A DNA stretch of 36,895 nt from Fonticula-like sp. SCN 57-25 (Eukaryota): contig MEDX01000037.1 of NCBI GenBank assembly GCA_001724245.1, positions 1-36,895 of the forward strand. Direction: 5' to 3'. Under the pieces are notes generated by a model. The model saw only the letters and a program-made list of their open reading frames with translations, was not told where the DNA came from and did no database searches. Positions 29,191-33,725 of this stretch are shown here, one piece after another (position 1 is the stretch's first letter; every line of letters starts with the position of its first letter). The position numbers and the translations under genes were made by a program.

Positions 29191-30058
29191 GGTGAATTCT
29201 GCAGGTTGAATAAAACTGGGAAATGAAACTTTCTTGGTGGTCAGTCTCGGTGCATTCCGAGGACCAGCGCCTGTGCAACAATGTTAGCAATCTAGGAAGG
29301 GTACCATTAAAAACGTACCAGGAAGCCGCGCCGACGGGATGGCGTTAGGCGAGGCCAGCACGATAGCTCTGAAGAGTACTGCGGCGGTCGACGGCGAAAA
29401 AAACCAGCAGTAGAAGGCCCTTGTTGGCGCCTCTCGAGATGCCGGTCAACGCAATAAAAAAAATAGCACGACCTACGAGGTACGCTAGCTTCTCGGTCTC
29501 AGAGGCCGCGCAGGTTAACGTAAACAAACTCGTGTACCGGAACGATAAACGAGGGCCCGAGCCACCAACACGACCAGGAGAAGGGGGCGGCGGGGAGGGG
29601 CAACAAACCACGAAATTTGACTGCGTCAACCGACGTAGTCAAAGACGAAATCACAATAATCCGCGACGGGAACGAGCAACGAGCAACGTTCAGCACTGGT
29701 CAGCCTCTAGCCCACTGTTGCCTGTGCGGTAAACGATGGCTTGCTTTTCCTTGGAAGGGGGGGGCGCCGAACGGTCCAGACAACACTGCTGGGCAGACGT
29801 AGGGCGGGAACTCGGTCGTTGTTGGTAAACGGTCAATTCAATAGAGTCACCTGAAAGTTGCCTACCCGGTGATTTTGTTGAAGGAAACACCTGACTTTCG
29901 AACCACACGGGTAGCCGATCTCAGTACACCCTCCATTTTATTGATGACGTCAATGTGCGCAATGTTCGTGATTGTGGGGCCAAATCCACGGTGGAATCCA
30001 CCCTGGATTTGACTATCGCCCACAGTGATGTGACAGTACTGCCCTTCTCGATCACCGG

Positions 30059-30066
30059 TATAAAAG
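30059..30066 (+). promoter_or_regulatory. TATA box (TATAAAAG) upstream of the RNase MRP RNA
   Basis: Canonical TATAAAAG beginning 36 nt before the first base of the MRP P1 helix. Confidence 0.6.
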
Positions 30067-30094
30067 CACCATGTGGCTCCCTTTTCTTTTCTTT

Positions 30095-30445
30095 GAGGAA
30101 CACGTCGAAGGCCCGCCGATCGGAGGCGCACGCACGGGGAGGTGTTGGTAACAATGTCCTCCTAGTCTATACCTTATTTGGAACCTCTGGGGAAGGTCCC
30201 CGGACGCAGGACAGAAAGTGTCAGCCGTAAAGGCCATCCCCTCCCGCTTACCTCCGCCTTGCGAAGAAGGAAGCACGCGAAGGGTATGCCGCCTCTCTTT
30301 CTTTCCTTTGATTGCCCCTGACCCTTTTTTTTGCTAGTGTGTTACTGAGCTGCGGCTTGCGGGGGGTAGTTTGTCCTAGCACAGTTATGCGGGCCTGCTT
30401 CTTTTGAAGCAGAACAGAACGGGGCCCACTCTCGACGTGTTTCTC
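30095..30445 (+). ncRNA. RMRP: RNase MRP RNA (351 nt genomic; ~297 nt if intron 30284-30337 is removed)
   Basis: P1 GAGGAACACGTCGA (30095-30108)/TCGACGTGTTTCTC (30432-30445). P2 AGGCCCGC/GCGGGCCT. CR-I GAAGGTCCCCGG pairs with CR-V ACAGAACGGGGCCCACTC (P4). MRP-diagnostic P8 GACA-GAAAG-TGTC (GARAR loop). P9 GCC-GTAAA-GGC. CR-IV AGTTA. P19 GCTTC-TTTT-GAAGC. Confidence 0.92.
30284..30337 (+). other. Putative 54-nt spliceosomal intron inside RNase MRP RNA
   Basis: GTATGC donor, pyrimidine tract, CCCTGAC branch site, T8, TAG acceptor, and a typical intron length for this window. Removal creates the hairpin AGCACGC-GAAG-GTGTGTT. Confidence 0.75.
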
Positions 30446-30628
30446 CCCATACCCACTCCCACAAAGAAATATGTCGTGTCAGTTTCCTCACCCTTATGTT
30501 CTCTGCACTCACTCGCGTAGGACCGACGTGCTCTTCTGGACTGGATTTCTGCCCACCCTCGCTCAAGGTATGTACTAGGAACTGGCTATTTGGGTTGGGA
30601 GTGGGTTCTATACCTCGTTATTGAAGAC

Positions 30629-30700
30629 GTGCAATGATGGTTGAATTTCTTCACCTGATCCTCATGAAGATCAAAACTCGAGCTTTTTAAATCTGAGCAC
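30629..30700 (+). ncRNA. SNORD36: Box C/D snoRNA, snR47/SNORD36 (U36) family, double guide, intronic
   Basis: Terminal stem GTGC/GCAC; box C ATGATGG (30634), D' CTGA (30655), C' ATGAAGA (30664), D CTGA (30693). D' guide TTGAATTTCTTCAC is complementary to LSU rRNA GTGAAGAAATTCAA. D guide CGAGCTTTTTAA is complementary to SSU rRNA TTAAAAAGCTCG. It lies within intron-like 30568 (GTATGT) to 30776 (GCTAAC...TAG). Confidence 0.92.
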
Positions 30701-31276
30701 ATTCTTCTTTTTTGCTTGCTATTTTTGCTTTTATATTCTTGCCGCTTCTGTTTGCTAACTCCTCAATTTGGACTAGTCTGTGTACTGCTCGACTTTTTGC
30801 ATGCATACTCAAGCTTGCGACCACTAATGTATTACAATATTACTACCGAGTTCCTTTCCCGCGCCCACCAAACCCCTAGTGCGATAAGAGCATGTCCAAA
30901 GAGAAAGCGATACTTCTAGTCTGCATGCACTATGCTCTACATGGTTGACACTCCTTTGCAAATTGCGCTAAAAGGCGCCCATCCTTCACACGATTTAGCT
31001 ACTGAATACTGCAGTCCAGCAGCACCATAGAGGGTGTCCTTTGATTCTTGCGAGTATGACCCATTTGAGCGATAAATCGGTGGCCCAACGACCATGCTGG
31101 TCAACGACGGTCGATCATGTCCAAAGCGTTGATTGGCCAAAAATGTGATTGCAAAATGCAAACTGTGTTACGTGGCCACAGATCCCGTTTTTCTTTTCCA
31201 CGCTCGTGCGCTTTTTCCATACTCCGTCGAGTCGTCTTGGTCGCCCACAGCTTGCCACTGCCAGGTTGCCAGTAGC

Positions 31277-33725
31277 ATGACGTTTGCCCTTGCTGGTGTT
31301 GTGCGCGTACGCCATTCTTTCTACGATAATGCATTTATTGTTGCTCACTTTTGCTCCTAATAGCGCCCTTTGGCGGCCATGACTGCCACCCGCGCCCTCG
31401 CAACTGCGGCAACTGCCCGCGTTCCGATGAGTCAGTTTGAGCAGGACCAGTTCATCAACTACAAGGCCATCGAGGACCGCCTTTTGGTTGTGCGCCGTCG
31501 CCTCAACCGCCCCCTTACGCTTTCGGAGAAGATTGTGTATGGTCACTTGGACGACCCCGAGCACCAGGACATCAAGCGCGGTGTCTCGTACCTCCGTCTG
31601 CGTCCTGACCGTGTCGCGTGCCAGGACGCCACCGCTCAGATGGCTCTTTTGCAGTTCATGTCGTCGGGCATGTCCAAGGTTGCTGTTCCCACCACTGTTC
31701 ACTGCGACCACCTCATCGAGGCCCAGAAGGAGGGCATTGCTGACCTGGCGCGCGCCAAGTCGCAGAACGCTGAGGTCTACGACTTCCTCAGCTCCGTTTG
31801 CGGAAAGTACGGCATCGGCTTCTGGAAGCCCGGTTCCGGCATTATTCACCAGATTCTCCTGGAGAACTATGCTCTCCCCGGTCTCCTCATGATCGGTACC
31901 GACAGCCACACCCCCAACGCCGGTGGTCTCGGCACCATTGCCGTTGGTGTCGGTGGTGCCGACGCCGTCGACGTCATGGCCAACATTCCGTGGGAGCTCA
32001 AGTGCCCCAAGGTTATCGGTGTCAAGCTTACCGGTCAGCTGACTGGCTGGGCTACGCCGAAGGATATCATCCTCAAGCTTGCCGGCATTCTCACGGTCAA
32101 GGGTGGAACCGGCGCCATCGTCGAGTACTTTGGCCCCGGTGTTGACACCATCTCTTGCACTGGCATGGCTACCATCTGCAACATGGGCGCTGAAATTGGT
32201 GCCACCACCTCGGTGTTCCCCTTCAACGGCCGCATGAAGTCCTACCTTGAGGCTACCAACCGCAGCGCGGCTGCTTCCCTCGCCGAGTCGTTCTCTGAGA
32301 ATCTGCGCGCGGATCAGAGCGCCCAGTATGATCAGCTCATCGAGATCAACCTCTCTGATCTCGAGCCGCATGTCAACGGCCCCTTCACGCCCGACCTTGC
32401 TACCCCGCTTTCGCAGTTTGCCGCCGCCGTCAAGTCCAACAACTGGCCGTCGGATCTCCGCGTCGGCCTCATTGGCAGCTGCACCAACAGCAGCTACGAG
32501 GACATGGCGCGCTCGGCGTCCGTGGCCCGCCAGGCTCTTGACCACGGCGTCAAGGCCAAGTCGGCCCTCACTGTGACTCCCGGCTCGGAGCAGATTCGTG
32601 CCACCATTGAGCGCGATGGCATCATGGGCACGCTCCAGGAGGCTGGCGCGACCGTCCTTGCCAACGCCTGCGGCCCTTGCATTGGCCAGTGGGATCGCCA
32701 GGACATCAAGAAGGGTGACAAGAACTCGATTATCACGTCGTACAACCGCAACTTTACTGGCCGTAATGATGCCAACCCTGCCACCCATGCCTTCGTTGCT
32801 TCCCCCGAGCTCGTCACTGCCATGGCCTTTGCCGGCGACCTCACCTTCAACCCGCTGACTGACTCTATTCGTGGAGCTGACGGCAAGGAGTTCAAGTTCA
32901 CTTCGCCCAGCGGCCATGAGCTTCCCCCGCGCGGCTATGACCCGGGAGAGGACACCTACCAGGCCCCGACCTCGGATCCCAAGTCTATCGAGGTCAAGAT
33001 TGACCCCAAGAGCACCCGCCTTCAGAAGCTTGAGCCGTTCGCTGCCTGGGACGGCAAGGACTACGACAAGCTCCCGATTCTCATCAAGGTCAAGGGCAAG
33101 TGCACGACCGATCACATCTCCATGGCTGGTCCCTGGCTCAAGTACCGTGGTCACCTCGACAATATTTCCAACAACATGCTGATTGGTGCGCTCAACTCTG
33201 AGAACGACAAGGTCAACTCTGTCTACGACCGCCTCCGCAAGACCTATGACAGCGTGCCCGCTGTCGGCCGCAACTACAAGGCGAACGGCATCAAGTGGGT
33301 CGTCGTCGGCGAGGACAACTACGGAGAGGGCTCTAGCCGCGAGCATGCCGCTCTCGAGGTTCGCCACCTCGGCGGTGTTGCCGTCATCGTGAACTCGTTC
33401 GCTCGTATCCACGGTACGCTTGAACTACCTTTACTCTTTGTATTGTTTTGCTGACAAATGCTGTTTTGCAGAGACCAACCTTAAGAAGCAGGGCGTTCTT
33501 CCGCTTACTTTCCAGTCCCCCAAGGACTACGCTCGCATCCAGCCGAGCGACTCCATCTCCATCGTTGGCCTCGCCGACCTCACCCCCGGCAAGCCTGTCC
33601 GCGCCATCCTGACTCACGCCGACAACTCGACCGAGGAGCTCCTCCTTAATCACACTCTCAACGAGGGCCAGATTGGCTGGTTCCGCGCTGGCAGCGCCCT
33701 CAACGAGATGGCGGTCAAGGCGTAA
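31277..33725 (+). CDS. ACO1: Mitochondrial aconitate hydratase, ~777 aa
   Basis: Exons 31277-31306, 31364-33413, 33472-33725. Motifs [72 protein letters not shown]; presequence-like N-terminus. Confidence 0.97.

Follow-up and report, generated by a model that had tools for sequence, protein, structure and literature searches.

An intron-containing RNase MRP RNA gene upstream of a predicted intronic snR47/U36 snoRNA on contig MEDX01000037.1

Results

The gene for RNase MRP RNA on contig MEDX01000037.1 of Fonticula-like sp. SCN 57-25 (assembly GCA_001724245.1) is, in all probability, interrupted by a 54-nt spliceosomal intron, and it is followed on the same strand by a U36/snR47-type C/D box snoRNA which is predicted to reside in an intron of a non-coding host. 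[quoted passage not shown] The window, i.e. the whole stretch of 36,895 nt that was analysed, contains the following elements in and around the locus.

Up to 29190, minus strand: protein kinase gene, flanking
30059..30066, plus strand: TATA box TATAAAAG, read from the sequence, with a putative promoter function
30098..30441, plus strand: RNase MRP RNA gene, match to the full RF00030 model; 344 nt genomic, 290 nt spliced
30189..30205, plus strand: MRP core element GGGGAAGGTCCCCGGAC, mCR-I type, from the cmscan alignment
30210..30222, plus strand: MRP P8-type hairpin GAC-AGAAAGU-GUC, read from the sequence
30284..30337, plus strand: spliceosomal intron of 54 nt (GTATGC, CTGAC at 30317-21, T8, TAG), identified by the skip in RNA contigs, the cmscan insertion and the intron profile
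30413..30433, plus strand: MRP 3' core AACAGAACGGGGCCCACTCTC, mCR-V type, from the cmscan alignment
30442..30477, plus strand: trailer of 36 nt after the predicted MRP 3' end, without a T tract
30478..30520, plus strand: candidate intron of 43 nt with atypical sequence signals (GTCAGT at 30478, CTCAC at 30508-12, TAG at 30518-20)
30521..30567, plus strand: candidate exon of 47 nt, deduced from the splice signals
30568..30776, plus strand: predicted snoRNA-hosting intron of 209 nt (GTATGT, branch GCTAAC at 30754-59, TAG at 30774-76)
30629..30701, plus strand: U36/snR47-type C/D box snoRNA, match to RF00049 (clan CL00051)
30777..31000, plus strand: candidate downstream non-coding exon with an arbitrary end coordinate; no ORF and no credible Rfam match
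ATG at 31379, plus strand: mitochondrial-type aconitase gene, flanking

The RNase MRP RNA gene

The match to RF00030 extends from 30098 to 30441 on the plus strand and covers the model completely (positions 1-266 of 266); its score of 121.4 bits is well above the gathering score, which is 50, and its E-value is 1e-33. The closing P1/P2 helix is formed by AACACGUCG and CGACGUGUU, with a terminal helix of 9 bp, and the loop of the P8-type hairpin contains GAAAG (30214-18), which fits the GARAR consensus that has been described as a criterion for this element (PMC4287351). The full-length model match, the core elements, the GARAR loop and the P1/P2 helix together identify the predicted product as a member of the RNase MRP RNA family.

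In a comparison with a protein atlas, the product of the neighboring aconitase gene was of the 'Ascomycota-type'. This result and the intron signals of the window are the grounds on which the source is taken to be a fungus. No ORF of at least 50 aa was found on the plus strand between 30050 and 31100, and a permissive Rfam scan of 29200-31400 yielded no further credible ncRNA beyond the MRP RNA and the snoRNA; a match to rli36 (30938-31023), which with 27.6 bits and E 0.065 stays far below the gathering score of 50, was taken as a chance hit. A scan for promoters and terminators of the bacterial type is uninformative for a eukaryote.

A preliminary description of this DNA, which was made from the sequence, had proposed a TATA box at 30059, an MRP RNA, a snR47/U36 C/D box snoRNA within a 209-nt intron and the lack of a convincing ORF across the exons. 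All elements that it listed are present at the positions given there, and the identity of both RNAs is borne out by the model matches, as is the lack of an ORF by the search above; what had been overlooked is the 54-nt intron inside the MRP gene.

The 54-nt intron within the MRP gene

RNA contigs of four runs, out of nine RNA runs which each share a small part of the window, were mapped on positions 29400-31600. Six contigs mapped, every one of them within 30104-30423, and the junction is present in four of these. The contigs with the 54-base skip, one per run and at least 99% alike, come from all four runs, which belong to three studies, and no RNA contig that retained 30284-30337 was found among these runs. 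The skip was set at 30284-30337, with GT..AG ends, after the cut had been shifted by one base. For one run (X2), the aligner placed a skip of the same length at 30281/30336, which would fit the same junction if that strain differed by a single base. Of the other two contigs, one stems from a relative (90-95%) and counts 57 letters against 112 in the window, or against 58 if the window is spliced.

The position of the skip coincides exactly with a 68-nt insertion in the cmscan alignment to RF00030. Thus, it is very probable that the MRP RNA gene holds a real spliceosomal intron, and the removal of this piece in RNA argues that the spliced MRP precursor is real as well. An alternative explanation, a DNA-level indel between strains instead of splicing, might draw on the origin of the contigs from mixed-community samples, in which strain differences are seen (e.g. 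C>T at 30185), and on the placement of the junction in run X2, which is 1-2 bases off. However, the missing piece has GT..AG ends, a CTGAC branch with 16 nt between the branch A and the AG, and a pyrimidine tract of eight T, and its length and signals match those of the other candidate introns of the window: when all of the window was scanned for intron motifs, 19 candidate short introns were obtained on the plus and 20 on the minus strand, all of them motif matches only, which are mostly 41-65 nt long with CTGAC or CTAAC branches, and the MRP intron is typical of this set. In addition, the 54 bases are lacking in all four runs from the three studies and present in none, and their removal restores an Rfam-like hairpin, since in the spliced RNA of 290 nt the exon ends pair across the junction in a 7-bp hairpin with a GAAG loop. 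An indel is, accordingly, regarded as highly improbable.

Promoter and polymerase of the MRP gene

An MRP gene of Pol III type 3, as in animals and plants, would be expected to lack a T-run terminator within the gene, to carry poly-T directly after it and to have no spliceosomal intron. The gene in the window departs from this pattern in each of these respects. A T8 run is located inside the gene (30325-32, within the intron), as is a T4 run, no run of at least four T occurs within 140 nt 3' of the gene, and the gene has a spliced intron. The TATA box TATAAAAG is located 39 nt 5' of the start of the MRP RNA. The spliced intron, the T8 run inside the gene, the missing T tract behind it and the TATA box upstream thus point to a gene of the Pol II type which depends on the spliceosome, and transcription by Pol III appears unlikely.

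The snoRNA and its predicted intron

At 30629-30701 on the plus strand, the sequence matches the model of SNORD36 (RF00049) with 71.4 bits against a gathering score of 30. Box C (30634-40), box D' (30655-58) and box D (30693-96) are present along with a terminal stem GUGC/GCAC, and the two guides at 30641-54 and 30678-92 are identical to the Rfam consensus letter for letter. Model score, boxes and stem thus place the predicted RNA in the SNORD36/U36/snR47 family. Human U36 corresponds to yeast snR47, the targets being Am2218/2220 in the LSU and Am619 in the SSU rRNA (PMC3511168); the organism's own rRNA is not part of the window. The splice signals around the snoRNA are strong, and the distance from its end to the branch A (30758) is 57 nt, close to the 55 nt or so that had been estimated in the preliminary description. 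A GT-AG intron, a suitable branch distance and the lack of an ORF indicate that the snoRNA is intronic in a non-coding host, as far as can be predicted from these signals.

The spacer and the candidate 43-nt intron

Between the MRP 3' end and the 5' splice site of the snoRNA intron there are 126 nt, in which no TATA sequence was found. The trailer and exon region (30436-30600) is predicted to fold no better than shuffled sequences (z 0.72) and gives no sign of a stem of the RNase III type. In this spacer, the preliminary description had placed a 43-nt intron, the signals of which are indeed located where it had put them but are weak and atypical: position +3 is a C, the branch does not conform to CTRAY, the distance from branch to AG is 9 nt, the length is at the low end, and the candidate was not passed by the strict motif scan of the window. 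Alternatively, 30521-30567 may be part of a continuous 5' exon tail of 126 nt (30442-30567). A short first intron as a conserved feature of such loci was also considered; a CTGAC...CAG stretch is kept in the spacer of two related loci (L019 and L027, see below), but it has no 5' splice site upstream, and the idea was dropped.

The sequence GTCAGT, which would form the 5' splice site of the candidate, starts 36 nt after the MRP 3' end. It occurs 14 times in the window, where 18 occurrences are expected, and the chance of meeting it in a 126-nt spacer is about 3%. It is not conserved in L019, L027 and L034, where ordinary 5' splice sites are located further downstream.

Comparative loci

A search with the conserved MRP core pattern GGGGAAGGTCCCCGGAC yielded 38 loci from metagenome contigs, which comprise 97,152 bases. 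The Rfam model for RNase MRP was matched at the gathering score in 31 of the 38; L019, L027 and L005 scored just below it, and no Rfam MRP match was obtained in L001, L009, L014 and L021. According to tblastx, the window shares no neighbor genes with any of the 38 loci.

Two groups of loci resemble the window in their layout. The first consists of L019 and L027, which are 91% identical over the aligned unit and 96% over MRP. Here, a SNORD36 match of 43 bits follows MRP at a distance of about 225 nt and in the same orientation, within an intron that starts with GTAAGC or GTATGC at +186, has CTAAC 55 nt past the snoRNA and ends with YAG; the latter two signals are conserved. In the second group (L034, L023 and L006), in which the MRP sequences of L034 and L023 are 99% identical, a 5' splice site GTGAGT is located at about +70, after a spacer of 71 nt, and a conserved YAG is found at about +266. 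A block of about 100 nt with diverged flanks is identical between L034 and L023, and it has a C box ATGATGT at its start and CTGA at its end. This block was not recognised by any Rfam model at E-values up to 5. All that ties the L034-type snoRNA to snR47 is the guide of 11-13 nt which the two have in common and the conserved C box/D box block, and the assignment is to be taken as putative. AATAAA motifs and a convergent gene are located within about 130 nt after the YAG in the L034 group. In both groups, five or six T in a row occur 10-15 nt past the 3' end of MRP, and no such tract is present in the window. A comparison with the protein atlas gave no taxon for L019. Large insertions in the MRP sequences of L008 and L034 were considered as further introns and rejected, as they rather look like paired expansion helices.

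The LSU guide 11-mer GAATTTCTTCA was found in 5 of the 38 loci when both strands were searched, against 0.05 expected, and it is always located 137-241 nt downstream of MRP on the MRP strand (+202 in the window). If only the seven loci are taken into account which have an MRP match of at least 300 nt and at least 300 nt downstream of it, a snR47-type guide is present in five; it is absent from L036 and L037. L036 has GTATGT at +71 and a putative element that resembles a C/D box snoRNA. MRP identity among the lineages of the window, of L019/L027 and of L034 is only 49-58%. The recurrence of the same order, i.e. MRP, a spacer of 71-186 nt, a 5' splice site and an intronic snR47-type snoRNA, in lineages as diverged as these argues that the layout is old and has been maintained. 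Synteny of MRP and snR47 in related genomes had been proposed as a check in the preliminary description; among the metagenome loci, the order of MRP and a snR47-type snoRNA recurs in two diverged lineages.

Discussion

One transcript or two

The arrangement of the locus raises the question of whether MRP RNA and snoRNA are produced together. We lean, with some reserve, towards a single Pol II transcription unit. The proposal of the preliminary description, in which the MRP precursor is at the same time the host transcript of the snoRNA, thus finds partial support. In favor of this reading are the 126-nt spacer without a TATA box or a stable structure, the same order and strand in two lineages in spite of an MRP identity of 49-58%, the position of GAATTTCTTCA, which is invariably downstream of MRP on the MRP strand, and the situation in L034, where, given the convergent gene and the AATAAA motifs, a host could be no more than tiny and non-coding. 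The MRP-snR66 tandem of budding yeasts, together with the Pol II occupancy and the exonucleolytic 3' trimming of NME1, was also counted for it. A spacer of this size is, moreover, too short to accommodate comfortably a terminator plus a conventional promoter. Counted against the single unit were the RNA contigs, which end at 30423 and thereby before the spacer and the junctions 30477/30521 and 30567/30777 (in themselves they speak neither for read-through nor against it), the T5/T6 run after MRP in L019, L027 and the L034 group, at which transcription could terminate, TATA-less promoters, which are possible in the spacer, the lack of the guide in two of the seven assessable loci (L036 and L037), and the annotation of yeast NME1 and snR66 as separate genes. 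Moreover, two genes with so little sequence between them may stay neighbors over time without being co-transcribed.

If, instead, two Pol II units abut each other, MRP transcription would end soon after 30441, and a TATA-less promoter overlapping the 3' part of the MRP gene would start a small snoRNA host at 30445-30567, the first intron of which carries the snoRNA. Such an organization, which we hold to be possible if somewhat doubtful, agrees with the T5/T6 run after MRP in related loci, as it is described for yeast NME1 (PMC12129344), with the annotations of yeast and Candida, in which MRP and the snoRNA behind it figure as separate genes, and with the many small non-coding snoRNA hosts reported from N. 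crassa (PMC2780460); as the 43-nt intron is unconvincing, 30521-30567 could belong to the first exon of such a host. However, the MRP gene in the window is followed neither by a T tract nor by another recognisable terminator, the spacer has no TATA box, and termination and initiation would have to fit into 126 nt, or into as little as 71 nt in the L034 group. A further arrangement, in which the aconitase gene (ATG at 31379) has a long 5' UTR that includes the snoRNA intron, without any connection to the MRP gene, is most improbable. The ORF for aconitase does begin 600 nt further downstream in the same orientation, and fungal snoRNAs often reside in introns of protein-coding genes (PMC2780460), but the pair of MRP and snoRNA has other neighbors in L019/L027 and in L034/L023/L006, without synteny in tblastx, the next gene in L034 is convergent, and a leader of 600 nt would hold several upstream ATGs.

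The locus is a compact non-coding locus of a fungus, and with a single unit, both RNAs would derive from one Pol II transcript which starts near 30098. The spliceosome would take out the internal MRP intron and, as predicted, the snoRNA intron; the snoRNA would be trimmed out of the debranched lariat, and the MRP 3' end might be formed by cutting the trailer or by 3'-to-5' trimming back to the P1 helix, which would be protected by protein.

A possible role of the GUCAGU site

To our knowledge, the formation of a 3' end by spliceosomal cleavage that is halted after the first step has been described so far only for telomerase RNA. In S. cryophilus and S. octosporus, both of them fission yeasts, GUCAGU is located 14-27 nt past the mature end of TER1, where it stalls splicing beyond the first step, and the released 5' exon, once trimmed exonucleolytically, is the functional RNA; as a 5' splice site, GUCAGU is very rare, since in two fission yeasts it is used by 3 of 5,702 introns and by 1 of 5,350, respectively (PMC4299874). 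The window resembles TER1 in that a candidate 5' splice site occurs within tens of nucleotides behind a functional ncRNA, GTCAGT being 36 nt away. It differs in that a cleaved form was not seen, that GTCAGT could be present by chance and that the related loci have ordinary sites. By analogy, it might be speculated that the biogenesis of MRP RNA in this fungal lineage depends on the spliceosome at both ends, with intron removal providing the fold, first-step-only cleavage at GUCAGU providing the 3' end and the rest of the precursor yielding snR47. We consider this unlikely, and cleavage of MRP RNA at a GUCAGU-type site may be taken as a lead rather than a result. As a possible second case in which the spliceosome forms the 3' end of an ncRNA, the site is directly amenable to testing.

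Comparison with known systems

Loci with MRP and a snoRNA in tandem are not new but known from budding yeasts. In S. cerevisiae, NME1 and SNR66 adjoin on the same strand (PMC9731477), and in four yeasts of the CTG clade snR66 follows RNase MRP after 147-246 nt, likewise in the same orientation, with both RNAs annotated as 'non-genic exon' (PMC5033589, S1 Table). The view put forward in the preliminary description, that the arrangement has no known counterpart in model organisms, does not hold in the light of these reports. Both NME1 and snR66 show Pol II occupancy in yeast (10.1101/352906), and the T tract after NME1 reportedly terminates transcription by Pol II as well as Pol III, the short tail being trimmed by Rex3 (PMC12129344). 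Budding yeasts and the window thus share an MRP gene followed by a C/D box snoRNA on the same strand. They differ in that the yeast snoRNA is snR66 and exonic by annotation, whereas that of the window is snR47/U36 and predicted to be intronic, that the yeast MRP gene has no reported intron, and that the two yeast RNAs are annotated as separate genes. What is new is, therefore, that the MRP gene holds an intron, that the snoRNA behind it is predicted to be intronic and is snR47/U36 instead of snR66, and that the layout is conserved outside the budding yeasts. A full-text literature search retrieved no report of an intron in MRP RNA or of co-transcription of MRP and snR47, although prior mention is possible; a paper on the ncRNAs of A. 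fumigatus mentions neither MRP nor U36.

Many intronic snoRNAs of filamentous fungi and Candida are reported to be carried by non-coding hosts (PMC2780460; PMC5033589). The locus in the window is similar to such UHG-like hosts with respect to the C/D box snoRNA in a GT-AG intron and the lack of coding potential, but here the upstream sequence is, or abuts, a functional catalytic RNA gene and not a throw-away exon. [quoted passage not shown] In both cases, a catalytic RNA of the P/MRP family is tied to Pol II and to a longer spliced transcript; unlike Drosophila RNase P RNA, the MRP RNA of the window is exonic and itself bears an intron.

The intron within the MRP gene has several consequences. 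It makes the production of an enzyme of pre-rRNA processing dependent on the spliceosome, it is a clear sign that the gene is in a Pol II state, and it implies that the mature MRP sequence is not readable straight from fungal genomes. If the spliceosome-dependent reading is true, some of the 'expansion segments' in MRP sequences of filamentous fungi that were taken from genomes may be introns. A conserved coupling of MRP RNA to a methylation-guide snoRNA would, if true, provide a simple co-regulation of two RNAs required for ribosome biogenesis, and no 'useful exon' other than MRP RNA would be known from the host gene of a snoRNA. Spliceosomal introns are also found in the small RNA genes of S. 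pombe U6, yeast U3 and fungal snRNAs, and the MRP gene of the window is similar to these in that such an intron interrupts the gene of a structured ncRNA.

Small RNA genes next to MRP RNA in other loci

Among the metagenome-contig loci that had been selected by the conserved MRP core pattern and compared with the window, L004 carries its MRP RNA gene within a group of C/D snoRNA matches on the same strand, which spans positions 464-1499 according to Rfam.

L004, 464-559, same strand as MRP RNA: snoZ159, score exceeds the gathering score
L004, 604-709, same strand as MRP RNA: SNORD33-like, weak match, one flank of MRP RNA
L004, 968-1235, +: MRP RNA
L004, 1396-1499, same strand as MRP RNA: snR56-like, weak match, other flank of MRP RNA

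Judged from the sequence, this arrangement looks like an MRP gene residing within a snoRNA cluster of a different eukaryote.

Other small RNA genes were also observed close to MRP RNA. In three contigs that are nearly identical to one another, a selenocysteine tRNA gene is located 47 nt 3' of MRP RNA on the same strand, and in L030 (1284-1678) a Metazoa_SRP match adjoins or overlaps MRP RNA, again with both on the same strand.

L015, 2216-2623; L016, 2411-2818; L020, 675-1082: MRP RNA and selenocysteine tRNA, same strand
L030, 1284-1573, -: MRP RNA
L030, 1538-1678, -: Metazoa_SRP match, truncated at the contig end

Sequences directly behind the MRP gene

The first 10-130 nt past the MRP gene were compared within a group of loci with MRP genes of about 281 nt. 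Four of these (L012, L029, L038 and L032) have GTATGT 8 nt past the predicted MRP 3' end, the position being taken by GTGCGT or GTGCGC in L011 and L018. In all six, an early T tract is absent after MRP, and conserved blocks, including …CGCTGCTGGG… and …TTTTTGAGCT…, follow the hexamer. These loci possibly represent a further lineage in which MRP is directly followed by a splice site or by a second small RNA.

C/D-like elements also occur behind MRP. In L028 (2444-2710), whose MRP RNA is short (199 nt), ATGATGA, 16 nt after MRP RNA, and CTGA lie about 58 nt apart in a C/D snoRNA-like element which matches no Rfam model. In L036, GTATGT at +71 past MRP precedes both a repeat of the form (TGTGTGGT)n and a candidate C/D-like element, GATGAGGA ... 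CTGA ... CTGA; region 480-781 yielded no Rfam match and lacks the snR47 guide.

L036, 782-1129, -: MRP
L036, 480-781, -: downstream region

L019 and L027, the related pair with an intronic SNORD36 behind MRP, are nearly identical over the first ~48 nt past the MRP 3' end (L019, 2764-2811, and the L027 equivalent), where five or six T occur in a row, and this near-identity is lost over the following ~30 nt. These ~48 nt may represent a 3' trailer or a terminator under constraint; alternatively, MRP RNA may in truth extend further downstream than the model places its end.

Insertions, introns and base differences

The MRP genes of L002, L008 and L024 are very long (457-486 nt), each with two large insertions forming long, purine/pyrimidine-paired helices, and contain T6-T8 runs. 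The insertions look like expansion segments rather than introns.

In a motif scan over the whole length of the window, most candidate short introns, which are motif matches only, start with GTACGY or GTGCGY; their branches read CTGAC or CTAAC, and their lengths cluster near 45-60 nt. At window position 30185, runs X2 and X3 both yielded RNA contigs with T in place of C, and the junction placement in X2 suggests a further base difference adjoining the MRP splice junction, at 30282. Both differences are probably strain variants in the sampled communities.
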